Origin: a virus
IMG/VR virus record: IMGVR_UViG_3300024239_000013
Location: 33,142 to 97,141 of that record
Direction: 5' to 3' (one strand)
DNA: 64,000 bases
Shown: piece after piece, positions 10,728 to 57,490 of the stretch
Position numbering within the stretch: position 1 is the first letter of the stretch
Layout of the letters: every line of letters begins with the position of its first letter
Program-made: the position numbers and the translations under genes
Notes under the pieces: model-generated
Database searches by the model: none
Told to the model about the DNA's origin: nothing
The model's input: only the letters and a program-made list of their open reading frames with translations

Positions 10728-10741
10728 TATAAATCAGCATA

Positions 10742-11689: not shown

Positions 11690-11705
11690 TATAATATAAA
11701 AAAAC

Positions 11706-12653
11706 ATGATGAAAAGAATAGTAAATTATAAAACATTCATAAACGAAAGCTCTGGTGAAAATAACCTGACCCCAGAACAAATTGATTTCCTTAACAACTA
11801 TGTTAAGGGGAAATGGAAGTTTAATGTTGGAGTTGTTGATATTGATGGCGATTTTAGTTGTTTCGATAGAGGAATATCTGACTTTAAAGGAATAGTGTTT
11901 GGAAGGGTTACCGGTCATTTTGACTGTTCGGATAACAACTTAACATCATTAGAAGGTTGTCCAAAAGAGGTTGGTGGAAATTTTTATTGTCATTATAACA
12001 ACTTAACCTCATTAGAAGGTTGTCCAAAAGAGGTTGGCGGACATTTTTATTGTCATTATAACAACTTAACATCATTAGAAGGTTGTCCAAAAAAAGTGAA
12101 TGGAGATTTCGATTGCACAGATAACAACTTAACCTCATTAGAATTCGGTCCAAAAGAGATTAATGGACATTTTTATTGTTATGATAACAGCTTAACCTCA
12201 TTAGAATTTGGTCCCGAAAGAGTGAATGGAGATTTTGATTGTTCGAATAACAACTTAACCTCATTAGAATTTGGACCCAAAGAGGTTGGTGGTACTTTCG
12301 ATTGCTCACGTAATAACTTAAGCTCGTTAGAAGGTGTTCCTGAAAAGCTGAACGGAGTTTTTTATTTCTCATGTAACAAATTAACCTCATTAGAAGGTGC
12401 TCCTAAAAAACTAGGATCACAATTTTTTTGTGAGAATAATGAAGGGATATCAACCAAAACGATAAATCTTATATTTGACAAAATGGAAACCTCCAAATCT
12501 GATTATAAAACAGTTTTAAAATCTTTATGGAAAGAAATACCAATAGAAGATAAAATACTTTTATACACCCCAGATCTTGATTGGGTTGAAGAAGATGAAG
12601 GGTCTAAATTAGCTAAGTTAAAGAAGTATAGCAACATAAAGAAAATGATCTAA
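11706..12653 (+). CDS. targeting-sequence/LRR-like tandem family member 8
   Basis: Paralog architecture. Confidence 0.8.
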   Translation: MMKRIVNYKTFINESSGENNLTPEQIDFLNNYVKGKWKFNVGVVDIDGDFSCFDRGISDFKGIVFGRVTGHFDCSDNNLTSLEGCPKEVGGNFYCHYNNLTSLEGCPKEVGGHFYCHYNNLTSLEGCPKKVNGDFDCTDNNLTSLEFGPKEINGHFYCYDNSLTSLEFGPERVNGDFDCSNNNLTSLEFGPKEVGGTFDCSRNNLSSLEGVPEKLNGVFYFSCNKLTSLEGAPKKLGSQFFCENNEGISTKTINLIFDKMETSKSDYKTVLKSLWKEIPIEDKILLYTPDLDWVEEDEGSKLAKLKKYSNIKKMI

Positions 12654-12671
12654 TATAATATAAAGAGCACA

Positions 12672-13367
12672 ATGAAAAGAATAGTAAATTATAAAACTTT
12701 CATAAATGAAAGTGCAGGTGCAAGTACACTGACTTCAGAACAGATAGATTTCCTTAACAACTATGTTAAGGGGAAATGGAAGCTGAATGGTGAAGGATTT
12801 ATTGATATAGATGGTGATTTTAGTTGTTTCGATAAAGGGTTATCAGACTTTAGATGGATAAAATTTGGAAAAGTTACAGGGTATTTTTATTGTTCATATA
12901 ATGGATTGACATCATTAGAGGGAGCACCAAAAAAAGTTGGTTTGAGTTTTTATTGTCATAATAACAAATTAACATCATTGGATGGCTCTCCTAAAGAGAT
13001 TGGTGGAAATTTCGATTGCTCTGACAACAAATTAACCTCATTAGAATTCTCACCCGAAAGTGTAAAGGGGAGCTTTGATTGCTCATATAACAACTTAACA
13101 TCATTAGAATTTGGTCCTAAAGAAGTTGGCGGAGATTTACGATTTTCTCATAATGAGGGATTGTCAACCAAAACGATAGGTCTTATATTTGACAAAATGG
13201 AAAAGTCCAAATTGGACTATAAAACAGTTTTAAAATCTTTATGGAAAGAAATACCAATAGAAGATAAAATACTTTTATACAATGCGGATCTAGATTGGAT
13301 TGAAGGAGATGAAGCGGCTAAATTAGCTAAGTTGAATAAATATAGCAACATAAAGAAAATGATCTAA
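12672..13367 (+). CDS. targeting-sequence/LRR-like tandem family member 9 (short, fewer repeats)
   Basis: Paralog architecture. Confidence 0.8.
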   Translation: MKRIVNYKTFINESAGASTLTSEQIDFLNNYVKGKWKLNGEGFIDIDGDFSCFDKGLSDFRWIKFGKVTGYFYCSYNGLTSLEGAPKKVGLSFYCHNNKLTSLDGSPKEIGGNFDCSDNKLTSLEFSPESVKGSFDCSYNNLTSLEFGPKEVGGDLRFSHNEGLSTKTIGLIFDKMEKSKLDYKTVLKSLWKEIPIEDKILLYNADLDWIEGDEAAKLAKLNKYSNIKKMI

Positions 13368-13386
13368 TATAATATAAAGAAACATA

Positions 13387-14271
13387 ATGAAAAGAATAGT
13401 AAATTATAAAGCATTCATAAACGAAATCTCGAGTGAAAATAACTTGACACCAGAACAGATAGATTTCCTTAACAGGTATGTTGAGGGGAAATGGAAGTTG
13501 AATGCTGATGGAGCTGTTGATGTAGATGGCGATTTTAGTTGTTTCGATAAAGGGTTATCAGACTTTAAAGGAATAGTGTTTGAGAAGATTAGTGGAGATT
13601 TTGACTGTTCGGCTAACAGCTTAATATCATTAGAAGGTTGTCCAAAAGAGGTTAATGGATATTTTTATTGTCATTATAACAAACTAACCTCATTAGAATT
13701 TGGTCCTGAAAGTGTAGATGGAGATTTCGATTGTTCGAATAACAATTTAACTTCATTAGAATTTGGACCCAAAGAGGTTGGTGGAAATTTTGACTGTTCA
13801 TACAACAAATTAACCTCATTAGAAGTCTGTCCAAAAAAAGTTGGGGGAACTTTCAATTGTTCATTTAATAAATTAACATCATTAGAATTCAGTCCAAAAG
13901 AGGTTGGTGGTAGTTTCAATTGCTCATTTAACAACTTAACATCGTTGCAATTCTCTCCAGAGAAAGTTGATGCTTATTTTCATTGTTCAAATAACAACTT
14001 AACCTCATTAGAAGGGGTATCAAAAGAAGTTGGAGGGAATTTAAGATGTTTTTATAATGAAGGGCTATCAACCGAAACAATAAATCTTATATTTGACAAA
14101 ATGATAAAGTCCAAATTGGACTATTCTGATGCTTTAAAATCTTTATGGAAAGAAATACCAGTAGAAGACAAAGTACTTTTATACACACCCGATCTAGATT
14201 GGGTTGAAGAAGACGAAGCGTCTAAATTAGCTAAGCTAAAGAAGTATAGCAGCATAAAGAAAATGATCTAG
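13387..14271 (+). CDS. targeting-sequence/LRR-like tandem family member 10
   Basis: Paralog architecture. Confidence 0.8.
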   Translation: MKRIVNYKAFINEISSENNLTPEQIDFLNRYVEGKWKLNADGAVDVDGDFSCFDKGLSDFKGIVFEKISGDFDCSANSLISLEGCPKEVNGYFYCHYNKLTSLEFGPESVDGDFDCSNNNLTSLEFGPKEVGGNFDCSYNKLTSLEVCPKKVGGTFNCSFNKLTSLEFSPKEVGGSFNCSFNNLTSLQFSPEKVDAYFHCSNNNLTSLEGVSKEVGGNLRCFYNEGLSTETINLIFDKMIKSKLDYSDALKSLWKEIPVEDKVLLYTPDLDWVEEDEASKLAKLKKYSSIKKMI

Positions 14272-14285
14272 TATAAAGAAGAATA

Positions 14286-15233
14286 ATGAAAAGAATAGTA
14301 AATTATAAAACTTTTATAAACGAAAGTTCAGGTGCAAGTACACTGACAACTGAACAGATAGATTTCCTTAACAGGTATGTTAAGGGGAAATGGAAGTTGA
14401 ATGATAATGGAGTTGTTGATGTTGATGGTGATTTTAGTTGTTCCGATAAAGAAATATCAGACTTTAAAGGAATAATATTTGGAAAAGTTACCGGTCATTT
14501 CTATTGCTCAAGTAACAACTTAAGATCATTAGAAGGTTGTCCCAAAGAGGTTGGAGGGGGTTTCAATTGCTCACGTAATGAATTAACATCATTGGAAGGT
14601 TGTCCAGAAAGGGTGAATGGAGATTTCATTTGTTATGGTAACAACTTAACCTCATTAGAAGGTTGTACAGAAAGAGTGAATGGAGATTTCATTTGTTCGG
14701 CTAACAACTTAACCTCATTAGAAGGCTGCCCTAAGGAAGTTGAGGGATTTTTCAATTGTTCATTTAATAAATTAGCTTCTTTAGAAGGATGTCCTGGAGA
14801 AATTGGAAGTAGTTTTTATTGTTCGTATAACAAATTAACCTCATTAGAATTTGGCCCAGAAATGGTGAATGGAGATTTCGTTTGTTCAGATAACAAATTA
14901 ACCTCGTTAGAATTCAGTCCAAAAGAAGTTGGTGGTAATTTTATTTGTTCAGATAACAACTTAACATCATTAGAGGGAATATCAAAAAAAGTTGGGGGAT
15001 CTTTATGGTGTTCTTCTAATGAAGGACTATCAACCGAAACGATAGATCTTATATTTGATAAAATCATAAAGTTCAAATTGGACTATTTGGATGCTTTAAA
15101 TTTTTTATGGGAGGATATCCCAATAGAAGATAAAGTACTTTTATACACACCCGATTTAGATTGGATTGAAGGAGAGGAAGCGGTTAAATTATCTAATCTA
15201 AAGAAGTATAGTAAAATAAAGAAAATGATATAA
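14286..15233 (+). CDS. targeting-sequence/LRR-like tandem family member 11
   Basis: Paralog architecture. Confidence 0.8.
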   Translation: MKRIVNYKTFINESSGASTLTTEQIDFLNRYVKGKWKLNDNGVVDVDGDFSCSDKEISDFKGIIFGKVTGHFYCSSNNLRSLEGCPKEVGGGFNCSRNELTSLEGCPERVNGDFICYGNNLTSLEGCTERVNGDFICSANNLTSLEGCPKEVEGFFNCSFNKLASLEGCPGEIGSSFYCSYNKLTSLEFGPEMVNGDFVCSDNKLTSLEFSPKEVGGNFICSDNNLTSLEGISKKVGGSLWCSSNEGLSTETIDLIFDKIIKFKLDYLDALNFLWEDIPIEDKVLLYTPDLDWIEGEEAVKLSNLKKYSKIKKMI

Positions 15234-16698: not shown

Positions 16699-17661
16699 AT
16701 GACAGAAGAAAAACTTTTTAGATGGACTAATTATTCAGTAAAGTCACTAGAAAATTTAATTGAAGGGATGGAAAAACATCATCCGGAAGATTATAAAAAG
16801 ATAAAGGAAATAAGTGATCGTTTACTATTGTATTATAGGGGAGATAATATATTAACAGAAAAACAAAAAAATACTCTAGATTCTTTATCTAAAGATTGGT
16901 ACATATCACCAGAAAACGGAGGGGTTAATATTGGATATATGTATGCTTCGGATTGGGGATTATCCATTAAAAATTATTGGGAAGAGGATACGGAATCTGC
17001 GAGAAAAAAAAGACTAAAGCTTTTTGAGGATCTTAAAAAAATAAAATTTAATGAGGTTTATTCTCTTTCTTTGAGATCGTGTGGATTAGAAGAATTTTGG
17101 CCAAATATGCCAAAAAGAACTTCTAGATTTGATTGTTCCTATAATAAGATAGAAAGTCTAGTTGGAGGTCCAGAATATGCTAGTGAATACGATTTCTGTG
17201 GGAATAATATTAAAAGCTTTGATGGGTTACCTGACAATGTTAAAGAATTAGATTGCAGTCATAACCCAATAGAGGATTTTTCAACCCTAAAAGTTAAAGA
17301 ATTATTAAGGTTTAGATGTCGGGATACACATATAAAAAATCTAATAGGTTGTCCTAAAGTTACAACCTTTTTAGACGTATCAGGATGTAAGTTAACCTCA
17401 GTTGAAGGAGCCCCGTTAAATTTAACCTTAAGAGAGGTTAATTTTGGGGAAAATGTGGTTAGTGAAAAAACATTAAAACTTGCTTTCAATGCAATGAAAA
17501 AAGCTAAAGGAGATTATGGTAAAGGATTGGATAAAATATGGAAAAAAATACCTATAGAAGACCAAATACAAATGTATAAGGACAATCCAAATCTTACTAA
17601 TGATGAGGTAAAAAAATATTACAATTTAAAAAAATATTTTGATATAAAAACTTTTATATAA
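16699..17661 (+). CDS. divergent member of the LRR-like family; lacks the targeting-like start but keeps F-D-C-S-x-N repeats and the conserved C-terminal domain
   Basis: FDCSYNKIESLVGGP and LDCSHNPIEDF repeats; C-terminal GDYGKGLDKIWKKIPIEDQIQMY...NLKKYFDIKTFI parallels the family C-terminus. Confidence 0.6.
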   Translation: MTEEKLFRWTNYSVKSLENLIEGMEKHHPEDYKKIKEISDRLLLYYRGDNILTEKQKNTLDSLSKDWYISPENGGVNIGYMYASDWGLSIKNYWEEDTESARKKRLKLFEDLKKIKFNEVYSLSLRSCGLEEFWPNMPKRTSRFDCSYNKIESLVGGPEYASEYDFCGNNIKSFDGLPDNVKELDCSHNPIEDFSTLKVKELLRFRCRDTHIKNLIGCPKVTTFLDVSGCKLTSVEGAPLNLTLREVNFGENVVSEKTLKLAFNAMKKAKGDYGKGLDKIWKKIPIEDQIQMYKDNPNLTNDEVKKYYNLKKYFDIKTFI

Positions 17662-34505: not shown

Positions 34506-34831
34506 TACTTAAATCTTTTTATAACTTTAAGTTTATCTATTTCAAATGCCATTTCTTCTAGTGACTTAGTTTCAAATATTATTTCATTTTTATCAACATC
34601 CATCATTACTCTATCATACTCACCAGTTTCTTTATTTCTTACTACGAAACAAGCCACTTTTAAAGAATCGTTCTGCTCACCAGATCCCCATAATACTGAT
34701 TTATCGACTGCGTGTCTTGTGCTTATTTTGTCATGAAACCACTCGTGTGTTTCTGACTCCCAATACAAACCATCTCTTTCTAAAAATTCGTTTCTTTCCA
34801 TACTTATTTTTCTGTTGTTGGTTTTAGCCAC
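34505..34831 (-). CDS. hypothetical protein
   Basis: 108-aa ORF. Confidence 0.45.
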   Translation of the reverse strand: MAKTNNRKISMERNEFLERDGLYWESETHEWFHDKISTRHAVDKSVLWGSGEQNDSLKVACFVVRNKETGEYDRVMMDVDKNEIIFETKSLEEMAFEIDKLKVIKRFK

Positions 34832-35547
34832 ATTCCATTACTAAAAATGATCTGAATTATTCTTGGATTAATTTTCTTTATATTTTCTAATAGCTCAAGT
34901 GTTTTGATAGTGTCTTCTTTGAACATCTTAAATATCTCCTCCCTTATTCTTTCCTGAGAAACAACCTTTTCTAATTTATCGATAACTTCTTCGTTTGAAC
35001 AAACTTTCATAATCTCTTCCGAAATAGTAAATCCTTTTGTTACTGAAAATCTAAAAGCTCGTATAAGTCTTAATGGATCATCTAGCATGGTCTTTTCGGT
35101 TTCTAATGGTGTTATTAGGATTTTATTTTTCAAGTGCTCTAGACCACCAAAATGATCTATAATTCGACCATATTCATCTTTTGCTAAAGCATTCAAAGTA
35201 AAATCTCTTCTTTTTAAGTCGTCGTTAAGATTACCTGGTTTTATTATAGGTTGTCTAGTTCCTGGAAAATAACCAACCTCTTTTCTTGACATTACAAAAT
35301 CTGCAACCCCCTGATATTTGTGATTTGCTGGGAATTGTGCTCTTATTGTAAAACAATCGGGATGTGTTACAAATATTCTGAAACCCTCATTATTCAAATA
35401 GGTTTCCAGAATAGTAAACATTTCATAAGCTGTATAGTCTCTTGACAATAAACTTTCATACGGAACTGCTACATAATCAACATCCTTTGAAACCAAACCT
35501 AAAATTTCATCTCGGACCTTTCCTCCGACTTCGTAAAATGTAAACAT
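34804..35547 (-). CDS. minimal tRNA nucleotidyltransferase (CCA- or A-adding enzyme head domain; polymerase beta superfamily)
   Basis: GGKVRDEILG...DVDYV motif, RRDFTLNALA motif and DPLRLIRAFRF motif are the class-II CCA-adding head-domain signatures. Confidence 0.7.
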   Translation of the reverse strand: MFTFYEVGGKVRDEILGLVSKDVDYVAVPYESLLSRDYTAYEMFTILETYLNNEGFRIFVTHPDCFTIRAQFPANHKYQGVADFVMSRKEVGYFPGTRQPIIKPGNLNDDLKRRDFTLNALAKDEYGRIIDHFGGLEHLKNKILITPLETEKTMLDDPLRLIRAFRFSVTKGFTISEEIMKVCSNEEVIDKLEKVVSQERIREEIFKMFKEDTIKTLELLENIKKINPRIIQIIFSNGMWLKPTTEK

Positions 35548-35637: not shown

Positions 35638-36114
35638 CTATTCCACCTTAAGAAACTTTAAAACCGAATCCCATCCAGGAAACTCCGATTGTCCAAAATG
35701 TATATGGGTTCCTTTGAAATCAGCAACCCCATTTGCTATTCTGTCATCTATTAAATAGTCACCCATTACTAGTCCTTTATTATGGCACAGAATTAATTTT
35801 TTCTTTGAAGTATTACCAAGATATTTTTGTACCCAATTTCTTTTCTCTGCCCAAGCATTAGGATTACTCCATGGTGGTGTGCTTAATATATAGGTTTCGT
35901 ATTTTTCCTGTAGTTTGTTCCATGCTTCAATAGCACCTTCAACAGGCTCTAGATCTTTGTAAGCATTTTCGTGCTTAAATAGGCTGTTACCCTTAATTCC
36001 TTGATTCTCTAGTTCTCTAGCTCTTTTATCGAAATCACAAATAACCCCATCCATATCTATGAGAACTATCGGTTTTGTGATTGGTATAGTTGCCCTTAAC
36101 CAGGATTTTTCCAT
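35638..36114 (-). CDS. 5'(3')-deoxyribonucleotidase (NT5C-type HAD phosphatase)
   Basis: HAD motif I LIDMDGVICDF and overall similarity to the 5'(3')-deoxyribonucleotidase family. Confidence 0.6.
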   Translation of the reverse strand: MEKSWLRATIPITKPIVLIDMDGVICDFDKRARELENQGIKGNSLFKHENAYKDLEPVEGAIEAWNKLQEKYETYILSTPPWSNPNAWAEKRNWVQKYLGNTSKKKLILCHNKGLVMGDYLIDDRIANGVADFKGTHIHFGQSEFPGWDSVLKFLKVE

Positions 36115-38166: not shown

Positions 38167-38625
38167 TTAATTTTCTGATATTTGACTTGAAATCTTTTTA
38201 ACTTTACCAATATCCGCTCTTCCTTGATATTTTTTATTAAACTCACCGATGGTTTTACCTATTAGCGCCTGCTTATTGGTAATCACGTTTTTAAAGCTTT
38301 TCATAATTTCTGAAAGTGCCTCTTCAACCTCTTTATCCGACATTTGTGCTGGCATATAATTTCTAAGAACTGAAGCTTCTGCAGATTCCTTTATAGCCAA
38401 ATCATGTCTTCCGTTTTTTTCAAAGATTTCAATTGACTCTTCCCTTTGCTTGATTGCCTTGTTAATTATTTTAAGAAAATCAGCATCTGTCATTTCCACA
38501 TTTGGATTTGATTTTTCTGCAAGTGTAATTGCTGATTTTACACTACTCAAAGCTGCCTTAGCATCATTGTCCTTATTCTTCATTGCAGATAAAAAATCTG
38601 CATTTACCCTTTCTTTAATTGTCAT
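38167..38625 (-). CDS. YqeY/GatB-domain protein
   Basis: Full-length similarity to the YqeY family (MKxxDxxAKxALSSxK..., KQREESIEIFEKNGRHDLAxKE, YMPxQMSDxE, GRADIGKV). Confidence 0.65.
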   Translation of the reverse strand: MTIKERVNADFLSAMKNKDNDAKAALSSVKSAITLAEKSNPNVEMTDADFLKIINKAIKQREESIEIFEKNGRHDLAIKESAEASVLRNYMPAQMSDKEVEEALSEIMKSFKNVITNKQALIGKTIGEFNKKYQGRADIGKVKKISSQISEN

Positions 38626-39457
38626 CTATCTTTGTTTTTAAAGTATTTCTAATAAAATCTCTTTCCTGTGTAAATATTGGGGTTTCTACAACAGACCATT
38701 TATTCCTTTTGTATGTTTCTCCATTTTCTATGTTATTCATAGTAACCTGAATTTTTTTAATTACCGCCCCCCTTTTTTTTCGGAAATCATAATCATTCCA
38801 GTTGATCCCCTTCTGAAAAATCATTTCTTGCAACTGGTCAGTTTTTACCCCATTTAATTGATTGTGACTATAAAGACTTTGTGCCACCGAAGAGATGCTA
38901 TTCCTTACTGCATCTTGTTGTCTCCAGATAAAGTAGTTTTCGACCTCATCTATAAAAGGGATTTGAAATGCTCTGGCATCGAACGTAGCAAGTTTGAAAT
39001 TTTCAATTTCAGATTCTTTTAAAAGATTTCCATCGTAATTCATCGAATGATTAGCAATTCCAAATTCATTACAAAACCTTTTCATTCTAAGTTGATTAAA
39101 TTTTGCTGTAGCCATAGATGATGCAACAGAAACCATTTTTTGCAAGTTATTATCAAACCATGCATGTGTTCCAAGATCGTCGAAATCTGTTAGTAAAAGA
39201 CTTATCTCATCTGACTGAACGTAACCTAACTTGGTTCCTTGTATGTTTTTGCAGAGATAAACTGTTGTCTCATTCATGTCTTCAATTAGACCTTCGTCAA
39301 ATGGACGTTCTAAACCTTTAGTGTAGGTGTGAAATGCTTTCCCGTCGATCCTGATGATCGTGTAAGTTCTTCTTGGGAGCTTGATCCTTGTTCTATCTTC
39401 GTAGAACTCTTTCATTCTGTCGCCTAATGCGTCTTTCATAATATTTGCTTTATGCAA
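38615..39457 (-). CDS. Thg1-like protein (tRNA-His guanylyltransferase family 3'-5' nucleotidyltransferase)
   Basis: GDRMKEFYE, IIRIDGKAFHTYTKGLERPFDE and YVQSDEISLL match the catalytic core of Thg1 and bacterial Thg1-like proteins. Confidence 0.75.
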   Translation of the reverse strand: MHKANIMKDALGDRMKEFYEDRTRIKLPRRTYTIIRIDGKAFHTYTKGLERPFDEGLIEDMNETTVYLCKNIQGTKLGYVQSDEISLLLTDFDDLGTHAWFDNNLQKMVSVASSMATAKFNQLRMKRFCNEFGIANHSMNYDGNLLKESEIENFKLATFDARAFQIPFIDEVENYFIWRQQDAVRNSISSVAQSLYSHNQLNGVKTDQLQEMIFQKGINWNDYDFRKKRGAVIKKIQVTMNNIENGETYKRNKWSVVETPIFTQERDFIRNTLKTKIDDN

Positions 39458-40655: not shown

Positions 40656-41174
40656 TTATCTGTTATAAATCACAACTGTTACTTTGCAATCTGTTATATT
40701 ATTGTGTATAATTTCCTTTATTCTTTCCCAATTTCCTCCAGCTAAACCTGAGCCTATTTTTGGCATCCCTATATGTTTCCCTTTAAAAACCATATTTAAT
40801 TTTCTCATGCATATGGTAAATGCTTCATAATCAAAAGGTATTCTAACCCCATCTTTATGATTCATCCCATATCTAAATTGTGTATACGCATTAACAACGG
40901 TTAGCTCTGGTTCGTTCCTATTGTTTTTGGCATCTTCCAAAGACCATATTGATCTTTCACCCAATACGAATGTCTGGTAATCTATATTACCTAATTTTTC
41001 TATGGAAGGACCGATTCTTTCCATATTGAATTTATCAGCTCCAAATGCCTTTGCCATCTGTGGAGCAATTCCAGCTCCCATTGTCGATTGACAATTACAA
41101 CCATGAACTATAACATCAAAATTTCCTTTTTTGGCCAGATCTATTAAATCCCCATATATTTCTTTGTATTCCAT
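40656..41174 (-). CDS. macro-domain protein (ADP-ribose binding/processing)
   Basis: VIVHGCNCQSTMGAGIAPQMAKAFG resembles the macro-domain N-x-x-N-x-x-L-G-G-G-G-V-x-G-A-I nucleotide-binding loop; about 170 aa as expected. Confidence 0.5.
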   Translation of the reverse strand: MEYKEIYGDLIDLAKKGNFDVIVHGCNCQSTMGAGIAPQMAKAFGADKFNMERIGPSIEKLGNIDYQTFVLGERSIWSLEDAKNNRNEPELTVVNAYTQFRYGMNHKDGVRIPFDYEAFTICMRKLNMVFKGKHIGMPKIGSGLAGGNWERIKEIIHNNITDCKVTVVIYNR

Positions 41175-42403: not shown

Positions 42404-42847
42404 TTATATTTTGATCTCTCTATTAATATCTCTTTCTATATCTCTATTTTTAATAACTTCCCTTTTATCATAGTTCTTTTTACCCCTAGATAAAGATATC
42501 TCTAATTTAAATAAGGACCTATCATTTTCATAAATTCTGCAAGGAACTATACTCATACCTTTTATTAGATCCTTTTGGAGTTTATTAAGCTCCTTTCTTT
42601 TTAATAAAAGTTTTCTATCTCTTTTTGGATTGTGTGAATAGTTTGGGTTCGTCGATGATATGTGTAGGTTTCTTATGAAAAGTTCATTATTTATAAAATA
42701 GCAATAAGAATCTGTAAAATCAATTCTATTTTCTCTAATAGATTTTACCTCAGATCCAACCAATTGAATCCCTGCATCTAATTTTTTTATAAATTCAAAT
42801 TCAAATTTTGCTTTTTTGTTAATGATATTTATTTTTGATGGTTTCAT
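42404..42847 (-). CDS. smpB: SmpB (SsrA/tmRNA-binding ribosome-rescue protein) homolog
   Basis: End-to-end collinearity with bacterial SmpB: KFEFEFIKKLDAGIQLVGSEVKSIRENRIDFTDSYCYF..., RKLLLKRKELNKL, GMSIVPCRIYENDRSLFKLEISLSRGKKNYDKRE. Confidence 0.75.
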   Translation of the reverse strand: MKPSKINIINKKAKFEFEFIKKLDAGIQLVGSEVKSIRENRIDFTDSYCYFINNELFIRNLHISSTNPNYSHNPKRDRKLLLKRKELNKLQKDLIKGMSIVPCRIYENDRSLFKLEISLSRGKKNYDKREVIKNRDIERDINREIKI

Positions 42848-45716: not shown

Positions 45717-46454
45717 TTATTTCTCCTTTAGCAAGAATGAATTAGAAATGGATTTGAAAGATATTGTTTTATCCTTGTTTCTAATAACCACTCCTTCTCT
45801 CTCCGCTCCATTGTATAGTTTTGATTTACCCTCTGCGTAAAGAAGAATTTCATCGACAGTTTCTGGTAGGCTATAATTTTCCTCGAGCACAGGAACAAGT
45901 TCAAGTGGTTTATCGTCATTATTAACTTTAGATAGGAATTCCCTCATTTCATCTAATCCTAGATATTCTTGAGTGTCAATATTGAAAATATTGAAAACTC
46001 TAAGAGTATGCCCTTTTATTTTATATGGATTCCCTTGAATTCCTTCACCGATAAGTTCACCCTGGATTGCGTAATTTTGATTAAGAGATCCTAGTTTTTC
46101 TGCTATCTTTAGCTCTCTAGCAACCTTCCAGAATGTATTTTCTTTTTTGGTTCTTTCGACACCATCTTCACCAATGATAGTACCAGGTACAAATTCTCCA
46201 GGATCCGCTAACTCAAGGTTTCTTGAACAGACTCCGAAAACTCCGTCTTTTAAATAGAAGGTTGCGGAACTTCCGTCTAGTTTTTCAGTCACATAAAACC
46301 TTTCAGTCTTCCAGCCCTCGTACTCTTTGGTTAGATTTTGACAGTTATGTACTAAAATATCGTTTGCATAGAAGTTATGAACTTTATCTACTTCAATGTC
46401 ATAACGTTTTGATTCATGATTTATCTTCTTAATAGATTTAATTTTATCTAACAT
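45717..46454 (-). CDS. C-terminal half of a fractured polynucleotide ligase. The C-half of a split intein (residues 1-37, ...KVHNFYANDILVHN; about 46344-46454) is fused to an Rnl2-like nucleotidyltransferase domain starting at Cys+1 (CQNL...VTEKLDGSSATFYLKDG)
   Basis: Split-intein C-half-like terminal HN followed by Cys; KxDG adenylyltransferase motif I, motif IV GEGIQG and motif V REGVVIR in the extein. Confidence 0.7.
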   Translation of the reverse strand: MLDKIKSIKKINHESKRYDIEVDKVHNFYANDILVHNCQNLTKEYEGWKTERFYVTEKLDGSSATFYLKDGVFGVCSRNLELADPGEFVPGTIIGEDGVERTKKENTFWKVARELKIAEKLGSLNQNYAIQGELIGEGIQGNPYKIKGHTLRVFNIFNIDTQEYLGLDEMREFLSKVNNDDKPLELVPVLEENYSLPETVDEILLYAEGKSKLYNGAEREGVVIRNKDKTISFKSISNSFLLKEK

Positions 46455-47416
46455 AGTATTTCTTTTAAAAGGTTATAGATTTCTTCGTTTGTCATATTAT
46501 TAATATCACTCTCCCAAAAATAGTGAACTGTATATCCTTTAGATTCTATAAGCTTACGTTTCCGATTGTCTTTCTTCCAAACATCCTTTGCTAAAAGACC
46601 ATCTAAAAGAACGTCAGACTCTTTATAGAACTTAGGATTAGCATGCCAAAAGTCACCTTGAACTTCTATGATAACTTTATTCTTAAATATCAGATCCCAG
46701 TTATATGCATATAGAAATCCGTTTGCCGTATATTCTACATCTAATTGATTTAGTATTGTCTGAATTCTGATCTCTTGACTACTTACATAATTTATATTAG
46801 CTCTTGCTTTTTCTGTCATCCGCCTGCGTTCATCCGCCGTCATTTTAGATATTCTTTTCTTCTGTGACTCTCCAATCTTCACCGAAACACCTGGGATTTG
46901 AGAAGGATTATAAACGCTATCTCCGTATTTTTTGATAAGAGTATCTCTTATAGATTCTTGGGCCTTTTCATAGTCTATATGTGACTGTGCAACCTTCCGT
47001 ATCTTTGGGTTGCAGAAGTTGTTCTCATATCCAAAGTTCTTTAGGAACGTCTCTTTCTTTTTTTTCTTGATGGCTTTAGCCTGTGATGGATTCTTAACCC
47101 CAAACCGTTTCATATTAGTAGACTCAATCTTATCTTTATAAACCTTGGTCTTTTTGCTTTCGCTATTAGTTCGTTTAATCCCAAGTAATTCGATATAATT
47201 TGCAAATGAAACCCCATACATTTCTTTAAGATCAGAGACATTATAACCTTCAAGATATAGATCCTTTACCGTATCGAAGGTTCTATCTTCTATTTCTATT
47301 TGAGATTTAATGTAGTTTACCTCATTTGTTAATTTATTAATGTTGTGATGTCTATTAATGTGTATTTTTAATATGTTCGTTTGATTGAATTCTTTATTGC
47401 AGATAATACACCTCAT
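46448..47416 (-). mobile_element. free-standing homing-endonuclease-like gene located between the two ligase halves; N-terminal C2H2 zinc finger (CIICNKEF...HINRHH) plus C-terminal Vsr-like/DUF559 PD-(D/E)xK nuclease domain (IIEVQGDFWHANP...KDNRKRKLIESKGYTVHYFWESD)
   Basis: Motifs read in the translation; genomic position matches the fractured-gene arrangement. Confidence 0.6.
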
Positions 47417-47490
47417 AATAAGTTTCCTTTTATTTATATATCTCTTATTTATATAAAAAACAATAAATAATCAGTCTTTTTAATAACTTT

Positions 47491-48300
47491 TTAGGTTATT
47501 TTAACGGTTTCATTACCTAAAAGATCTCTAACTTCTCTGAAGCATTTTAATTCAGGAAGCCAAATACGATGATTTCCAGTAGCTTTAATAGTCTTACCAG
47601 ACTCTAGTTCAATCATGTACCAATCGTTATTATTCTTTTGAATAGAATGACTGTTAATGGAGTTCATTTCATTTTCATCAGTTATAGTATTGTATGATAG
47701 AACCTTACCTGTATACTTTGACTCACAGATTTCCTTGATAGTCATTGGACCGTCTTCTGTGTTAACAATAACATCTTCAGACAAGCATCTTTCTTCATCA
47801 GTCTTTCTGATAAATGACGGGAAGTATCCCTTAACCTTTCCTGCTAGCTGTGCTGGAATAGGAGGTTCGTATTTTATGATTCCGAGAAGATCTGTTACAT
47901 CTAGACCCTCTTCTATAACAATAGAACCACCAGTCCCCAATTGTAATTTGTCTCCTTGTGGTTGTTTGCTAATTCCAACGACCATTTCTTTTTCACTTCT
48001 CAAAGTAGATAAAGGCAATAAAAGCCCTTGACTTAATTCTTGTCTAAGTCTAATAGTCTTTAATCTAAATCCTTCAATGTCCCCCATTTTTTTATATGAG
48101 GATTTTCTTAGAAATTCGAATTTTTCATCAATTGGTAAGAATGAATCAACTTCACAATAAATAGCCAATTCTCCCTCCTTATATTCTCCAATTCTAGTTA
48201 TAACTTTCCATCCACCAATATGACAAATCTCAAGTGAGTCTGCATTGGGATGTTTAGTTATTTTATCAATTCTCTTTACTGATGCTAATTTTCTTTCCAT
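47491..48300 (-). CDS. N-terminal half of the fractured polynucleotide ligase. N-extein (residues 1-171, with a tRNA-binding-domain-like OB N-terminus KHPNADSLEICHIGGWKV) is fused to the N-half of a split intein (residues 172-269, CLSEDVIVNTEDGPMTIKEI...IKATGNHRIW...; about 47494-47787)
   Basis: The intein N-half is collinear with DnaE split-intein N-halves (CLSYETEILTVEYGLLPIGKI...IRATKDHKF...); the ORF terminates right after the intein block. Confidence 0.7.
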   Translation of the reverse strand: MERKLASVKRIDKITKHPNADSLEICHIGGWKVITRIGEYKEGELAIYCEVDSFLPIDEKFEFLRKSSYKKMGDIEGFRLKTIRLRQELSQGLLLPLSTLRSEKEMVVGISKQPQGDKLQLGTGGSIVIEEGLDVTDLLGIIKYEPPIPAQLAGKVKGYFPSFIRKTDEERCLSEDVIVNTEDGPMTIKEICESKYTGKVLSYNTITDENEMNSINSHSIQKNNNDWYMIELESGKTIKATGNHRIWLPELKCFREVRDLLGNETVKIT

Positions 48301-50721: not shown

Positions 50722-51773
50722 CTATTTTTTAAATCTATTAAAAGAATTGACGGTGATCAAATTCCATTTAACTTTACCTATAAAATAATTAAGACTCCTT
50801 GAATTTGTGTAACTCATTGCAGAACTTAAATAGCTTTTTAAGTTATCAACCCATCCGTTGATTGTATATTCAACCGGCTGCATTCTAGTAACACCCTCGC
50901 TAGTTTTAAGTACAGTTTTACCCATTGCTAACTGTGCCTCCTTGGTACTCATTCCTCTGAACTTCTTAAACATTTTGGTTCCGAAGTTAAATAGCTGTTC
51001 AGTTTCCTTGGAGTATTGATCTACTCTTTCTCCAGGCTCTGTCCACCCTTCTTTTTTATTGTTTGCAAGATATGTTTCCCCGCACTCTCTAGAGCTTTAT
51101 TTAATATAGACCCAAGCATAATATAATCTGCTCCTAAAGCCAATCCTTTAATAATATCAGAATAACTTTTAAATCCACCATCAGCAACTATTTTTGAAGG
51201 ATTCGTTAGAGATTTTTTAATTCGATAACACTCATCAATTAGTGATGCCATAGGATAACCGATACCTGTCTGAACTGTAGTAAGACATCCTCCCCCATTA
51301 CCAATACCAATTCTAATATAATCTGCTCCGGCATCTGAAAAAATCTTATATGTTTCAGGATAAGCAACATTCCCGACCATTAATACTAAATCTTCTCCGT
51401 ACATATCTTTGCCTTTTTTGACTAGATCTAGTAATTTAGTCATATGGCCGTTAGCTATATCGATAAGAATATAATACTTTCCCTCTCTCTTATTTTTAAT
51501 AAAGAGTTCTTCGAATTGGTCCATTCCAATAGCTCTAAAAAAATCGAAAGATGTATTTTCTAAATTGGAATCAGAATATTCGGTCCTTGGCATTATTACT
51601 TTGATTCCTGCTTTAAGGAAGAAATCTTTATTTTCTTCACAAATTACAGTATCCATAGGTGCTGTAAAAAGGGGAAGATATCCATCCTCATATAAAACAT
51701 TAACTTCTTTTCTTGAAGTAATTTCGCTAATCGTAGCGGGAGTAATTAAAATATCATCAAAATCAAATTTCAT
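50722..51773 (-). pseudogene. GMP reductase / IMPDH-family (beta/alpha)8 enzyme interrupted by a -1 frameshift at a GGGGAAA tract (about 51085-51095). N-part is track ORF 51021..51773; C-part continues in the -1 frame through KMFKKFRGMSTKEAQ...EGVTRMQPVEY to 50722
   Basis: N-part carries the conserved GIGNGGGCLTTVQTGIGYP and ADGGFKSYSDIIKGLALGADYIMLGS blocks; hand translation of the other frame restores the canonical ...ESxGE-x-Y...RGMSS...EGKTV C-terminus. Confidence 0.6.
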
Positions 51774-52653: not shown

Positions 52654-53328
52654 TTATTTCAACTTTTTAGATTTGATAACTTCATCAATTATACCATATT
52701 CAACTGCATCTTCTGAGCTTAACCAGAAATCTCTGGTTGCATCATTTTTTACCTGTTCGGCAGTTTTTCCACAATATTCGCCAAGAAGCTCAAATAAAAT
52801 CTCATTGTATTTTTTCCACTCTAACATATCAATTTCTGCGTCTTGTATGTTTCCGCTAAATCCACCGCTGGATTGGTGAAGCATAACCTTACTAAATCTT
52901 AGTGAGGCTCTTTTACCCTTAGTTCCTGCTCCCAATAAAACAGATCCCATTGAAGCTGCCATTCCTGTATTCACTGTTACTATGTCGGATTTAATGTAAC
53001 CCATAACGTCAACCATACTAAGTCCAGATTTAACAGATCCTCCTGGTGTGTCAATATGCATTGTAATGTCTCTATCATCAACAGAATCTAGAAACATAAG
53101 TTGTGCTTGTACAACGGTAGACATGTCGTCGTTAACAACTCCCGCAACCCAAAGAATTCTATCCATCATTAACCTATCAAAGACTGTCATCTGAGTAACT
53201 CTAAGCTGTCTCTCCTCGAGAATCATAGGAGTCATTGATGACTGGATTTTTTTGTCATAATAATCCAATTTCATAGAACTTATTCCGCTGCTCAGAGCAT
53301 ATTTTTTAAATTCCGCTGATGTATTCAT
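52654..53328 (-). CDS. clpP: ClpP-family serine protease. Probable start at the internal Met (MNTSAEFKK...); the track ORF extends to 53403
   Basis: Full-length ClpP similarity: DRILWVAGVVND, IDTPGGSVKSGLSMVDVM, GMAASMGSVLLGAGTKGKR, MLHQSSGGFSGNIQDAEI. Confidence 0.7.
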   Translation of the reverse strand: MNTSAEFKKYALSSGISSMKLDYYDKKIQSSMTPMILEERQLRVTQMTVFDRLMMDRILWVAGVVNDDMSTVVQAQLMFLDSVDDRDITMHIDTPGGSVKSGLSMVDVMGYIKSDIVTVNTGMAASMGSVLLGAGTKGKRASLRFSKVMLHQSSGGFSGNIQDAEIDMLEWKKYNEILFELLGEYCGKTAEQVKNDATRDFWLSSEDAVEYGIIDEVIKSKKLK

Positions 53329-53350
53329 ATTTAATCTATATTTTGTTTTT

Positions 53351-53755
53351 TTAATAATGTAAATCAATAAATAAAAAATCCTGATCGTCTTTATAGCTAA
53401 CACAACTCCAAGCAGGATGATATTGTTCTTTCAGCTCATCCCCAATCTCAATAATATTCGATAATGGATCCTCGATATCATATTCAGGTTCAAGACCACA
53501 TTCTCTTCTTTTAGATTCTTTTAAAAGATTTTCATTCATTTTTTTTGCTGAATGATAGGTAACACCTTCCTTTAGATAAACCCCCCAATCATTTCTTTCG
53601 AAATAAAAGTCCTCAACCCTCTGTATCATTATTTTTGCGTCATCTGGGATTCCATTTTTCTTTACGAATTCCTTTAGCCCACCAACAGTCAAATGCTGTT
53701 TATAATTCTTAATATCTTCTTTTGTGAGTTTTTTAATATTATTTTTATTCCTCAT
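53351..53755 (-). CDS. hypothetical protein
   Basis: 134-aa ORF. Confidence 0.45.
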   Translation of the reverse strand: MRNKNNIKKLTKEDIKNYKQHLTVGGLKEFVKKNGIPDDAKIMIQRVEDFYFERNDWGVYLKEGVTYHSAKKMNENLLKESKRRECGLEPEYDIEDPLSNIIEIGDELKEQYHPAWSCVSYKDDQDFLFIDLHY

Positions 53756-54150
53756 TTTTTTCTAAATTTAACATAGTTTTCTAAATATGAGGAGATGTTT
53801 TTTCCTCCTGCAGGATTCATAGAATGAACCAAATATTCAGGAAGATCCAAATCATTATCTATACAATAATCAACCAACCACTTTGCACAATCTAACCCAG
53901 TTTTTTCTTTAAATCTTTTGTACAATTTATTATAAGAACCCCCGTACATTTTTGGAGAGTAATGCTCATCAGCGAGGTCATGATCAAAAGAAATTATCTT
54001 AGGAAGACCTTTTTTGATGATGTAATCAACAAACTCGTCATAGTTTCTAACGATTACCCATTCCAATTTAGAATATATTGGGAGCTTCATATACTTTATA
54101 CAGTCATAAGGATGTCTAAAATCATCCAGAAATAAATTGTAATTCATCAT
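53752..54150 (-). CDS. hypothetical protein
   Basis: 132-aa ORF. Confidence 0.45.
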   Translation of the reverse strand: MMNYNLFLDDFRHPYDCIKYMKLPIYSKLEWVIVRNYDEFVDYIIKKGLPKIISFDHDLADEHYSPKMYGGSYNKLYKRFKEKTGLDCAKWLVDYCIDNDLDLPEYLVHSMNPAGGKNISSYLENYVKFRKK

Positions 54151-54161
54151 TATTTTTCCGT

Positions 54162-54542
54162 TTATTTTATTTTAATAAATAAATTTCCTGATTCTATAGA
54201 GGAAATACACAATAAATATTCAACCAATGTGATTTTTTTATTGTTTATTTCCATGTAAATTGAGTTTAGAAGAACTCTATCACTAAATGTTCCACCAAAT
54301 TCGTCACACTTTAGAATTATCTTAGTGTTCTTACCAAAAATCTCTGTTCCGAGGTCAGTTAAAAGATCCCTTGAAATATTAAAACTTATAGTTTTATGTG
54401 CATATCTAGCAAATACCCTTAGAATAGATCCACGAAGTTTTGTTTTAAAGATTTCCAGAATTGGGGATTCTCCTAGCTCTTCATAGCTCATATTATAATT
54501 TTCGAGATCCTCTTTTTTTATATTGAAATCTATGGTAGGCAT
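54162..54542 (-). CDS. hypothetical protein
   Basis: 126-aa ORF. Confidence 0.45.
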   Translation of the reverse strand: MPTIDFNIKKEDLENYNMSYEELGESPILEIFKTKLRGSILRVFARYAHKTISFNISRDLLTDLGTEIFGKNTKIILKCDEFGGTFSDRVLLNSIYMEINNKKITLVEYLLCISSIESGNLFIKIK

Positions 54543-54543
54543 A

Positions 54544-55284
54544 TTATCTGAACCAGTTTATCATACCATCCCACATTGCATCTCCGTGATTTATAGCCCC
54601 AAAATCGTAAAATTCCTCAATTCCAGATTCATCAAAATCCCTATCTTCTTCTGTGTAATATTCGGATTTTTCTAGAGTTTCTATTGGATTTTTTCTTTCC
54701 TTGTAATATTTCCACCATTCTTCTTTAGAGATATTCTCATAATCTGGATATATTGAAATTTCACCGGGATTATATAGACTAGGTTTAACCTTAGCAGGAA
54801 GACCATAGTACCATATCTTTCTGTCAGTCTCATTTTCAGGGTTTATGAAATTGTAAGGATGTTCTAATAGTTCTATAGTTAAAGCTTGAGCTTTCGACAT
54901 TGCATAACCAAGATCTCTAGAAGCAAATGAATATATCAATTTACCATTTGCATAGATTTCACATTTACCATTAGCCCTTAAATCATATTCATCCCACTTA
55001 TGTTTCAGATAATTATTTTGTTTATATCTGATTTCCCAACAAATTCTATTATTGCCTTTATTTATATAAGGAGTAAGTTCTCTTTCGAAATTAATCTCAC
55101 CTCTTACAGGTTCTTCTGTGTGATCTAGCCACCAAGTTGTTGGTGAATCATTCATTTCTCCTAATACATGGTGATATCCGTCTATGTCGTAAACCGTACA
55201 TAGTCTATCGTCCAAATATACGTCAAAAGCTTTTCTTACTTTATATTTTTCCCTTGCTTTGCTTATAGTTAAATATTTCCCCAT
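54544..55284 (-). CDS. hypothetical protein
   Basis: 246-aa ORF. Confidence 0.5.
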   Translation of the reverse strand: MGKYLTISKAREKYKVRKAFDVYLDDRLCTVYDIDGYHHVLGEMNDSPTTWWLDHTEEPVRGEINFERELTPYINKGNNRICWEIRYKQNNYLKHKWDEYDLRANGKCEIYANGKLIYSFASRDLGYAMSKAQALTIELLEHPYNFINPENETDRKIWYYGLPAKVKPSLYNPGEISIYPDYENISKEEWWKYYKERKNPIETLEKSEYYTEEDRDFDESGIEEFYDFGAINHGDAMWDGMINWFR

Positions 55285-55288
55285 ATTT

Positions 55289-55708
55289 TTATAATTCTAT
55301 TTCAAATCTATCTTTCATTTTTCTTATAGATTCTTCAGGAACCTCGTGAACATTAGTTCCCCCGTGTCTGTTCTCTATAATTATACTAGTTACCATATAA
55401 CCATATTCCTTTGCCAATTTGAAATATGGTTCCATTTCCCATTCTTGTGTAAATGTATTGGAAACTACTATTTCTGGATAATATCGAGAGTTTTGTTTAT
55501 TCTCTTTCATTCTATTCTCAACCTCATTTCTACACCATTCATGTGCAGCTTTTAATTTAGAAGGATTGAAATTATATTCCCCAGTTTCTTTATCGTAGAA
55601 ATATTTGTCAGCCTCGCATATTTCACAATCATTCCAAAGATGTCTTGCGAATGTAGATTTACCAGAGCCAGGTACACCTCTAATTAAAAATAGTGTAGGA
55701 TTCAACAT
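55289..55708 (-). CDS. polynucleotide 5'-kinase (T4 Pnk kinase-domain-like P-loop protein)
   Basis: LIRGVPGSGKSTFARHL versus T4 Pnk TIGCPGSGKSTWAREF; LAKEYGYMV versus T4 FAKEYGWKV. Confidence 0.65.
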   Translation of the reverse strand: MLNPTLFLIRGVPGSGKSTFARHLWNDCEICEADKYFYDKETGEYNFNPSKLKAAHEWCRNEVENRMKENKQNSRYYPEIVVSNTFTQEWEMEPYFKLAKEYGYMVTSIIIENRHGGTNVHEVPEESIRKMKDRFEIEL

Positions 55709-55741
55709 TTTTGTGGATTTTTTTAGATTTAATTTATTAAA

Positions 55742-56386
55742 TTAATTTTCCATGTGATGGTCTTTAGGTAGGACAAGAGTCTTTATTGGTCTGCCTTTTA
55801 AAATACCTAAGATCTCGTCTAGACTATATGGCTTTAAATCGTTACCATCAACTCCTACATCCATTGCTCTCCCCGAATTTACCTTTAAATTAGGTGGAAG
55901 ATGAACGTGTCCATGCAGATGTGGAACTCCCCTCCCCATATCTTCCCAGCTAGCAACAGGGAAGTGACTGCAGAAAAATTTGTATTTTTCAGTTTCTTTA
56001 TCCCGAGGTCTTCTTATTTCTAAGATATCATAGAATGCAACTTCTTTGAATATCTCTTGAATACCTTCTCTATTATTTTTTATGTGATGATCGTGATTTC
56101 CAAGAAATATGATAATATTCTTACATTTTATTTGAGATCTAAATTGTTCTATGGATTCAAATCCACCAAAACTCCAATCCCCTAAGTGGACTAAATAATC
56201 ATTCTCGTCAACATATAAATTTATTCCGTTAACAAGAGCGGAATTCATTTCCCCTAAGCTGTGGAAATCCCTAGTTCTGCTGGATTTATCACTCCAAGTT
56301 GAAACTCCTCGACAAATATTCTGGTGTGAATAGTGAGTATCGCTAGTAAACCAAATTTTCTGGTTCTTTTCTAATGTTATTTTCAT
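55742..56386 (-). CDS. calcineurin-like metallophosphoesterase (candidate 2',3'-cyclic/3'-phosphate end-healing phosphatase)
   Basis: WFTSDTHYSH, GDWSFGG, GNHDHH and HGHVH metallophosphoesterase motifs; sits between the kinase and Rnl1 genes, as in bacterial Pnkp. Confidence 0.6.
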   Translation of the reverse strand: MKITLEKNQKIWFTSDTHYSHQNICRGVSTWSDKSSRTRDFHSLGEMNSALVNGINLYVDENDYLVHLGDWSFGGFESIEQFRSQIKCKNIIIFLGNHDHHIKNNREGIQEIFKEVAFYDILEIRRPRDKETEKYKFFCSHFPVASWEDMGRGVPHLHGHVHLPPNLKVNSGRAMDVGVDGNDLKPYSLDEILGILKGRPIKTLVLPKDHHMEN

Positions 56387-56392
56387 AATTAT

Positions 56393-57490
56393 CTAATCTT
56401 CTGTTTTATTCCAAAATGGTTTTTGATATTTGGGTCTTATCATTTTCCAGATTTTTTCTGAATAGTCATTCCCATCATAGAACATAAATAAAATACTTGT
56501 TATATCTCTATCTTGTTCTTTTGCCCATTCTGCAAATTCCTTCCTTCCTTTATCTTTTTCAAAATCTGGTCTTTTTTCAAAGAAGCTCTTGTAAATATCG
56601 TTTACTCTTTCCTCTATTGATGAATAGTTATATTTCAATTCTTTTATTATTTTCTTCACCCAAAGATCAAATTCATCAGGAACCCTATCCAAAAAATTAC
56701 CAAGATCCTGTTTATTTTTTAAGAGCTCCCAGATATCCACATTCGAGAAGTTTGTCAATAGTCTATGTAATCTAACATATTCCTCGCCTTTTATTTTCAT
56801 TCTGAATCCGGAAGAAAATCTAATAACGAAACCCTCGGAATTTGAAGATATTATTTTTTTAAGCTCTTTGTAATTATTAAGACCGTCATATTTTTTAACT
56901 ACTTTAAACCCTATAGTTCCTAGAATACCCTGGTTTTTTAAGTTCATTAAGCTTTTTTCGTCAGAGTGAATATCATATTCATATCCATCTAAATTATCAA
57001 TAACTGAAAGTAAAATGATATCCTCAAAATCATAGCTAACAACTATTCGATTTTCTGGGTAGATAATCTCGAATAAATAAGTGCAATCTTTCAACAAATC
57101 CTTATAATGATATTTCTCCAATATAGATCTTCCCCTTATCGCTTGCTCTGAAGTGAATGATCCTTTTGTAGCAAAATGCCATTCCCCTTCGTAATTGAAA
57201 AGTATACCCAAGGATCCGTCCATCTTCTCGAAAACATCAAAATTTTCGTTCGGAATATCGCTAGAATCCAATTCTTCTAAATTAAAGAATTTAGGAAATG
57301 TCCTTGCAACGACATTTCCTTCCCTATCAAGAACCGTCCCTCTCATATTAAGAGTGATTTCATCCCACTCTTTAGAGAATTGGCACTCTCTTGAATAGTT
57401 ATAAATATCCAAAGGTAATGATGGATGAGAATTTTTTTCTAAAAGACCTCTTTCAATATAGGAATTGAGAATATTTATATCGTATTTCAT
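56393..57490 (-). CDS. RNA ligase 1 (T4 gene 63 / Rnl1-like tRNA repair ligase)
   Basis: Collinear with T4 Rnl1: MRGTVL (CRGIMF), FPKFFNL (PMEKFFNL), motif I EKMDGSL (KEDGSL), ATKGSFTSEQA (FKSKGSIKSEQA), EIIYPENRIVVSY. Confidence 0.75.
   Translation of the reverse strand: MKYDINILNSYIERGLLEKNSHPSLPLDIYNYSRECQFSKEWDEITLNMRGTVLDREGNVVARTFPKFFNLEELDSSDIPNENFDVFEKMDGSLGILFNYEGEWHFATKGSFTSEQAIRGRSILEKYHYKDLLKDCTYLFEIIYPENRIVVSYDFEDIILLSVIDNLDGYEYDIHSDEKSLMNLKNQGILGTIGFKVVKKYDGLNNYKELKKIISSNSEGFVIRFSSGFRMKIKGEEYVRLHRLLTNFSNVDIWELLKNKQDLGNFLDRVPDEFDLWVKKIIKELKYNYSSIEERVNDIYKSFFEKRPDFEKDKGRKEFAEWAKEQDRDITSILFMFYDGNDYSEKIWKMIRPKYQKPFWNKTED

Follow-up and report, generated by a model that had tools for sequence, protein, structure and literature searches.

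A Thg1-like protein and an adjacent YqeY in an uncultured phage: probable independent members of a jumbo-phage tRNA- and RNA-maintenance toolkit

The 64,000-nucleotide stretch of viral DNA analyzed here (the window; positions 33,142 to 97,141 of IMG/VR record IMGVR_UViG_3300024239_000013) encodes a Thg1-like protein (TLP) and, directly downstream on the same minus strand, a stand-alone YqeY protein. A sequence-only reading of this DNA had proposed that the two genes form a tRNA 5'-end repair module directed against a host nuclease. Our analysis favors another explanation, to which we assign a probability of roughly 0.6, namely that TLP and YqeY are independent members of the tRNA- and RNA-maintenance toolkit of a jumbo phage, and that their adjacency reflects lineage-specific synteny.

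The first gene belongs to the Thg1 family, as the sequence-only reading had claimed for the open reading frame (ORF) at 38615..39457. Its product matches the Pfam Thg1 profile PF04446 well above the cut-off (E-value 1e-29, 103.5 bits vs. 29.2) across profile positions 2-130 of 130, and a Pfam scan at E-values up to 0.01 returned no family besides this one. It also matches PHROG 4717, annotated as “tRNA-His guanylyltransferase” (3e-87), and the structure of the Bacillus thuringiensis Thg1-like protein (BtTLP; 4kgk, 8.6e-65). The latter match falls in two stretches, residues 9-128 and 155-271, the second of which covers the C-terminal half, i.e., the tRNA-binding region of the family, and aligns with BtTLP 124-235 (E-value of this stretch 1.6e-22). 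Eukaryotic Thg1 structures are matched far more weakly (9e-12 to 2.5e-4). Both motifs that had been singled out from the letters, RIDGKAFHTYTKGLERPFD and YVQSDEISLL, are found in the translation, the coordinates given for this ORF and for its neighbor (38167..38625) are correct, and the matches are far above chance. On the minus strand, the TLP frame opens at a TTG (39457), which yields 280 amino acids (aa; 38615..39457), and again at an ATG (39439; MKDALGDRMKEF...); the latter is likely the true start, because BtTLP and the phage homologues begin there.

The catalytic residues are intact. In BtTLP, D30 and D75 are metal-binding and E76 is the third carboxylate (PMC3701042, whose numbering we used for the mapping). 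These correspond to D38, D83, and E84 of the window TLP (280-aa numbering), and BtTLP E12, R28, R131, and R147 correspond to E20, R36, R162, and R179, all of which are present, as is S82. Across an alignment of 67 non-identical phage TLP homologues from IMG/VR, D38, D83, E84, E20, R36, S82, and R162 show no variation, R179 is kept in 66 of the 67, and the loop at 128-155 varies freely in length, from 0 to ~30 residues. As read from this alignment, the combination of invariant catalytic positions and a freely varying loop indicates that purifying selection acts on catalysis in the phage TLPs. Within the family, the RNSISS stretch of the window protein aligns with the HINNLYN of Candida albicans Thg1, a position at which BtTLP, characterized as a 5'-end repair enzyme (PMC3701042), is also of NSIS type. 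The window TLP, which is without the HINNLYN anticodon-recognition motif and is closest to bacterial TLPs, fits the repair-type subgroup, and is a bona fide, repair-type (bacterial-type) TLP that is probably active. Close homologues in four of the loci surveyed below, which are cited by their L-numbers (L005-L008, e.g., L005 8004..9062), are longer (341-365 aa) and carry a ~90-residue C-terminal extension, where Pfam shows no domain beyond Thg1.

TLPs are already well represented among phages. A tblastn search of the phage collection placed the family in 164 records, including Bacillus, Prevotella, Caulobacter, Mycobacterium, and Xanthomonas phages, and more than 8000 proteins of the metagenome protein database passed 1e-5 against the window TLP, the best 120 of them being 66-92% identical. 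A Thg1-like gene was remarked on as an unusual phage gene in Bacillus phage Bc431v3 in 2013 (PMC3601020), and a 2021 comparison of jumbo phages counted Thg1 among the RNA-repair genes, together with RNA ligases and the CCA-adding enzyme (PMC7824862). A phage TLP as an RNA-repair gene is thus not new, and the window adds an example to a described class.

The second gene encodes a full-length YqeY, in agreement with the YqeY/GatB-type domain previously read from its sequence. The match to PF09424 (1.7e-35, 122.6 bits vs. a cut-off of 27) spans profile positions 1-138 of 143, and further matches were obtained to PHROG 1460 (1.2e-21) and to the YqeY structures in PDB (8xjg, 2.4e-15; 8xje, 7e-14; 1ng6, 1.3e-13). 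Fourteen phage YqeY homologues are 49-65% identical and share 34 invariant columns. YqeY resembles the tail of GatB and the C-terminal domain of Deinococcus radiodurans GlnRS, where it raises the affinity for tRNA-Gln while “acting only in cis” (PMC1865053). By analogy, the window YqeY may bind tRNA and could help an enzyme that handles tRNA, which need not be the TLP. In two related loci (L089 8001..8339 and L091 153..491), the YqeY frame is cut at 112 aa and its homology continues in another frame, which represents a frameshift, a pseudogene, or an assembly error.

The two genes do overlap, as the sequence-only reading had stated, and the overlap measures 11 nt, but their order is the reverse of the one it gave: both are on the minus strand, with TLP upstream and YqeY downstream. 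Overlap and shared strand are what a dedicated pair might be expected to show, but they are not special to these two genes, because genes are tightly spaced throughout this block: YqeY lies just 6 nt from the next, unrelated gene, and other nearby overlaps measure 4 and 20 nt. No Shine-Dalgarno-like motif was found upstream of the YqeY start, and such motifs precede only 3 of the 38 minus-strand genes of the block. A promoter and terminator scan was uninformative, with sites no commoner than in shuffled sequence, in an organism apparently without standard Shine-Dalgarno use; in the same scan, the stretch from 43.2 kb to 34 kb showed no terminator on the minus strand.

To evaluate how often the two genes travel together, we examined 80 TLP loci from IMG/VR (±8 kb) and, from the other side, 49 YqeY loci, for which a profile built from 14 phage YqeY sequences served as the query. 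Thirteen of the 80 TLP loci have a YqeY gene no more than 8 kb away, and 16 of the 49 YqeY loci have a TLP gene within this distance; the other 33 do not. Among the 80 TLP loci, YqeY abuts TLP only in L001/L002 and L030, and both surveys together add only L101 (paired with L030) and L083 to these and to the window itself. Elsewhere, YqeY is 0.5-1 kb downstream of TLP, separated from it by one or two unrelated ORFs (L003, L005-L009), 4 kb downstream (L019), or 1-3.6 kb upstream (L022, L026, L029). The closest syntenic relative, L044, on a 271-kb contig, matches the window order for SmpB, the macro-domain gene, g39539, g40047, g37750, g36939, NT5C, and the CCA-adding enzyme. The gene immediately downstream of the TLP there is the g37750 homologue, and relaxing the threshold did not reveal a YqeY. 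TLP and YqeY are ~101 kb apart on 373-kb contigs (L016, L096), ~45 kb apart on a 191-kb contig (L036, L118), and 33-179 kb apart in those isolated or curated phages where both are present (XacN1, Xoo-sp13, RAS14, CM1, and LR745206). Bacterial and archaeal assemblies (Paenibacillus, Armatimonadota, Bacteroidota, Clostridia, and others) provided 80 cellular TLP loci, and at none of these was YqeY found within 8 kb; nor is any of the best 120 TLP homologues a PF04446 + PF09424 fusion protein. The linkage is real within one sub-lineage and commoner than random, yet it is not obligate and is confounded by the shared ancestry of the loci.

These counts do not bear out the conserved module that had been proposed. 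In its explicit form, YqeY would deliver damaged tRNAs to the TLP, and the two components would counter a host nuclease that trims the 5' end or the 5' acceptor strand of tRNAs. Besides the 11-nt overlap on a common strand, this proposal can draw on the 11 redundant loci where YqeY directly follows TLP or lies within ~1 kb of it, on the presence of both genes in five isolated jumbo phages, and on the gain in tRNA affinity provided by the YqeY domain fused to D. radiodurans GlnRS (PMC1865053). However, adjacency is lost in L044, order is reversed or interrupted in L022, L026, L029, and L019, distances of 33-179 kb separate the genes in several genomes, and neither the cellular loci nor the search for fusions provides an instance of the pair; moreover, YqeY acted “only in cis” in the sole test (PMC1865053), and it is as tightly spaced to the next, unrelated gene of the window as to the TLP. 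We thus consider a dedicated two-component module unlikely: comparative genomics weakens the idea without killing it, and leaves the YqeY neighbor as a mildly interesting lead. It is tempting to speculate, as a still less probable variant, that a free YqeY was recruited in one uncultured jumbo-phage lineage as a trans-acting tRNA-binding partner of the TLP, either for proof-reading the phage's own large tRNA set or for undoing host attack on tRNA 5' ends. If true, this would be the first function assigned to a stand-alone YqeY, as well as a two-protein tRNA 5'-end repair enzyme.

Several observations also weigh against our view of the two proteins as independent tRNA-maintenance factors. YqeY is within 8 kb in ~40% of the 30 closest TLP loci, where ~6% would be expected under random placement in a 250-kb genome, so that some functional tie between the two is possible, with the limit that shared ancestry of the loci inflates this count. 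YqeY was detected in IMG/VR by short peptide patterns, and divergent copies may be missed. The 64-kb window holds no tRNA, tmRNA, or other Rfam family (ARAGORN and Rfam searches), and hence no local tRNA.

The proposed trigger of the module, a host nuclease clipping tRNA 5' ends, does not correspond to the two acceptor-end anti-phage tRNases considered here. A literature search, within the library searched, for a defense nuclease that removes tRNA 5' nucleotides found none. Cas12a3 removes the 3' CCA tail (PMC12851939) and retron Eco2 nicks tRNA 6-7 nt upstream of the CCA terminus (PMC12916289), i.e., both cut the 3' strand or the CCA tail and not the 5' end. The TLP cannot mend such lesions, because it needs the 3' strand as template, and the CCA-adding enzyme of the window is a better match than the TLP to the lesion left by Cas12a3. 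We also considered whether TLP and YqeY are themselves part of a defense system, and rejected this option: PADLOC models matched neither of them nor four neighbors, with the sole exception of a weak match of the macro-domain protein to DarG.

A broader tRNA-related role is better founded. The genes for TLP and YqeY often lie within phage tRNA arrays, which fits such roles: of the 80 TLP loci, 10 have at least seven tRNA genes within ±8 kb (maximum 26), as do 12 of 47 YqeY loci (maximum 29). Of the role read from the sequence alone, the link to tRNA is plausible given these arrays and the RNA-repair island around the pair, but the dedicated response to 5' clipping is unsupported. In nine loci (L094-L097, L119, L085, L107, L116, L084), YqeY (~8001-8450) is positioned mid-array among 17-29 tRNA genes, and in L094, L096, L097, and L119 this array-borne copy is ~101 kb from the TLP. 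About 100 nt downstream of the YqeY of L107, ARAGORN calls a “tRNA-Stop” (8547..8619; anticodon UUA, which would read UAA) with a poorly paired acceptor stem; the call may be spurious, or the gene may encode a suppressor tRNA.

The tRNA genes themselves are mostly well formed. Among 279 unique phage tRNAs near TLP or YqeY, 259 have 7/7 acceptor pairs, and they do not resemble substrates of 5'-editing of the mitochondrial style, an idea that we rejected. A mismatch at acceptor pairs 1-3 occurs in 11 of the 279, about half of which are tRNA-Met; a 1:72 mismatch is expected in initiator tRNA.

A narrower alternative is that the TLP mainly serves tRNA-His, of the phage or of the host, by adding or restoring G-1 for charging by HisRS, with YqeY unrelated to this activity. 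Bacterial TLPs can add G-1 opposite C73, databases label the family as tRNA-His guanylyltransferase, and tRNA-His genes occur at or near the TLP in L028, L031, L060, L066, L072, and L074; in L028, the tRNA-His gene starts only 21 nt past the TLP stop. However, arrays of 10-29 tRNAs often include His by chance, the window has no tRNA-His gene, and its TLP is without the HINNLYN of true Thg1 and closest to the repair-type BtTLP. In addition, 9 of 11 phage tRNA-His genes encode both G-1 and C73, so RNase P can keep G-1 as in bacteria. We therefore rejected, as a general explanation, that the TLP is required because phage tRNA-His genes do not encode G-1; the enzyme is not needed to create G-1 on these tRNAs, but could restore it. 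Specialization on tRNA-His accordingly appears improbable to us.

Targets other than tRNA ends are more doubtful still. Under this alternative, the TLP would extend or repair the 5' ends of other small RNAs or of phage transcripts, and YqeY would work with the ribosome. Bacterial yqeY commonly follows rpsU, which encodes bS21, in a shared operon under co-regulation (PMC13374519), and SmpB, encoded near the pair, points to ribosome-directed functions. Against this stand the recurrence of both genes within the tRNA arrays of relatives and the activity of all characterized TLPs, as far as PMC4820378 and PMC6471195 describe them, on tRNA-like acceptor stems in vitro. Nor is there a bS21 gene in the window or the related loci, which also led us to reject the idea that YqeY was brought along with a phage bS21, as might be suggested by the bacterial rpsU-yqeY operon.

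Under the preferred reading of two independent toolkit members, and by homology with the characterized family (in the parts of PMC3701042 and PMC4820378 that treat its mechanism), the TLP would activate the 5'-monophosphate of a 5'-shortened tRNA with ATP or GTP, and would then add the missing nucleotides in the 3'-to-5' direction, templated by the 3' acceptor strand. This addition would include G-1 opposite C73 of tRNA-His, and the TLP would thereby provide quality control or repair for the tRNAs of the phage, of the host, or of both. YqeY would contribute separately, as a free-standing helical protein of the GatB-tail type; the one activity tested for such a protein, in another system, is an increase in tRNA affinity. 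The two genes would be co-transcribed within a dense minus-strand block that also encodes RNA ligases, end-healing enzymes, a CCA-adding enzyme, SmpB, and a macro-domain protein.

This block constitutes an RNA-repair and translation-rescue island (Table 1). Its RNA break-repair set (53752..57490, minus strand) holds two ORFs without family assignment in addition to those tabulated, and a second RNA ligase is fractured into two pieces around an endonuclease-like ORF, an arrangement that, judged from its domains, resembles a split intein accompanied by a free-standing homing endonuclease. The short CCA-adding enzyme is matched by NCBIfam CCA models, but below their cut-offs. No tmRNA partner for SmpB was detected in the 64-kb window (ARAGORN and Rfam); SmpB homologues are also close to TLP or YqeY in L026, L044, L122, and L130. 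The macro-domain gene is the commonest conserved neighbor of the TLP (within 8 kb in 16 of the 80 loci) and abuts YqeY in L118. The C-terminal part of its product weakly resembles the macro domain of DarG, and this protein could be an ADP-ribose-removing counter-defense enzyme. Between the two RNA-ligase regions, we also observed genes for a ClpP-family protease, which additionally matches head-maturation-protease PHROGs, and for an IMPDH/GMP-reductase-like protein. Further away, the plus strand carries some eleven paralogous ORFs in tandem, with lengths of 231, 288, 294, and 314-315 aa (5488..15233). Leucine-rich-repeat signatures are present in the two array ORFs tested, whose PHROG matches (7816 and 21719) have no assigned function, and one more leucine-rich-repeat ORF is located at 16699..17661.

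Table 1. Features of the minus-strand block around the TLP and YqeY genes (window coordinates).
Feature	Position	Strand	Size, matches, and remarks
Short CCA-adding enzyme / tRNA nucleotidyltransferase	34804..35547	minus	247 aa; PF01743 6e-15, PHROG 24229 4e-59
HAD-family NT5C-like protein	35638..36114	minus	
Full-length YqeY (GatB-tail-like helical protein)	38167..38625	minus	152 aa; PF09424, PHROG 1460, PDB
TLP/YqeY overlap	38615..38625	minus	11 nt, ATGACAATTAA; TLP stop TAA and YqeY start ATG
Thg1-like protein (TLP)	38615..39439	minus	274 aa from ATG at 39439; PF04446, PHROG 4717, BtTLP 4kgk
Macro-domain protein	40656..41174	minus	172 aa; PHROG 335 1.3e-44; Pfam Macro 21.8 bits (cut-off 22)
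SmpB (tmRNA-binding ribosome-rescue protein)	42404..42847	minus	PF01668 1.9e-45; NCBIfam SmpB 158 bits (equivalog cut-off 130)
Second RNA ligase, intein-split	45717..48300	minus	N- and C-terminal pieces around endonuclease-like ORF
Second ligase, C-terminal piece	45717..46454	minus	C-terminal part of Intein_splicing; PF09414 RNA_ligase 2e-29
Endonuclease-like ORF between ligase pieces	46448..47416	minus	322 aa; C2H2 zinc finger, DUF7487, DUF559
Second ligase, N-terminal piece	47491..48300	minus	PF21189 3e-34 (PHA02142 OB-fold); N-terminal part of Intein_splicing
IMPDH/GMP-reductase-like protein	51021..51773	minus	
ClpP-family protease	52654..53403	minus	PF00574 5.5e-55
Cyclic-phosphate-processing receiver domain	53752..54150	minus	PF20274 cREC_REC 1e-21
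P-loop polynucleotide-kinase-like protein	55289..55708	minus	139 aa; PF13671 AAA_33 1.4e-12; weak bacterial Pnkp match 5.9e-5
Metallophosphoesterase (calcineurin-type)	55742..56386	minus	PF00149 5e-8, PHROG 547 4.6e-42
T4 Rnl1-type RNA ligase	56393..57490	minus	PHROG 562 7.8e-67, PF09511 3.6e-18

The phage context assumed for the TLP in the sequence-only reading was upheld by its relatives in IMG/VR, by the ORF matches to PHROGs, and by the source contig. The identical YqeY protein occurs on a metagenomic contig of 276,364 bp (ENA ERZ27245855 k141_97055), and 136 IMG/VR viral contigs, many of them 100-370 kb long, encode TLPs 48-78% identical to that of the window. The window has a GC content of 31%, and megablast against isolated phages returned no near-identical DNA, leaving it without a cultured relative. 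Long relatives in IMG/VR combined with the lack of a cultured DNA relative suggest a jumbo-phage lineage known only from metagenomes, and the source is a probable jumbo phage of an uncultured AT-rich lineage. A lineage that repeatedly has both genes side by side, and beside tRNA arrays and RNA ligases, offers a reasonable experimental entry point to the two proteins.

Compared to known systems, the window TLP is nearest to BtTLP (PDB 4kgk/4kgm), with ~50% identity over the whole length, equivalent carboxylates, equivalents of R28, E12, R131, and R147, and an NSIS-type motif. It differs by a ~27-residue insertion at 128-155, the loop that is hypervariable among phage TLPs, by S190 where BtTLP has M158, and by being encoded by a phage rather than a bacterium. 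With the PHROG 4717 proteins of Bacillus phages Bc431v3, BCP78, and G and Xanthomonas phage XacN1, it shares the family and 40-52% identity, but it comes from an uncultured AT-rich lineage, its closest relatives are 66-92% identical, and YqeY directly follows TLP in the window, unlike in the isolated phages that have both genes.

The window YqeY resembles free-standing bacterial YqeY (1ng6, 8xje, 8xjg) in its full-length profile match and in the conserved KQR...GR..LA.KE...L..YMP motif region. In bacteria, yqeY is usually found downstream of rpsU, whereas the window gene has no bS21 gene around it, and in D. radiodurans GlnRS the gain in tRNA affinity comes from a fused domain, whereas the window protein is free-standing. 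At the level of the whole island, the Rnl1-type ligase, phosphoesterase, P-loop kinase, CCA-adding enzyme, and TLP recall tRNA break repair of the T4 type (Pnkp and Rnl1) and the RNA-repair sets of jumbo phages, for which this combination has been discussed (PMC7824862). In the window, however, the healing functions are carried by separate small proteins, a second ligase is intein-fractured, and YqeY and SmpB are added.

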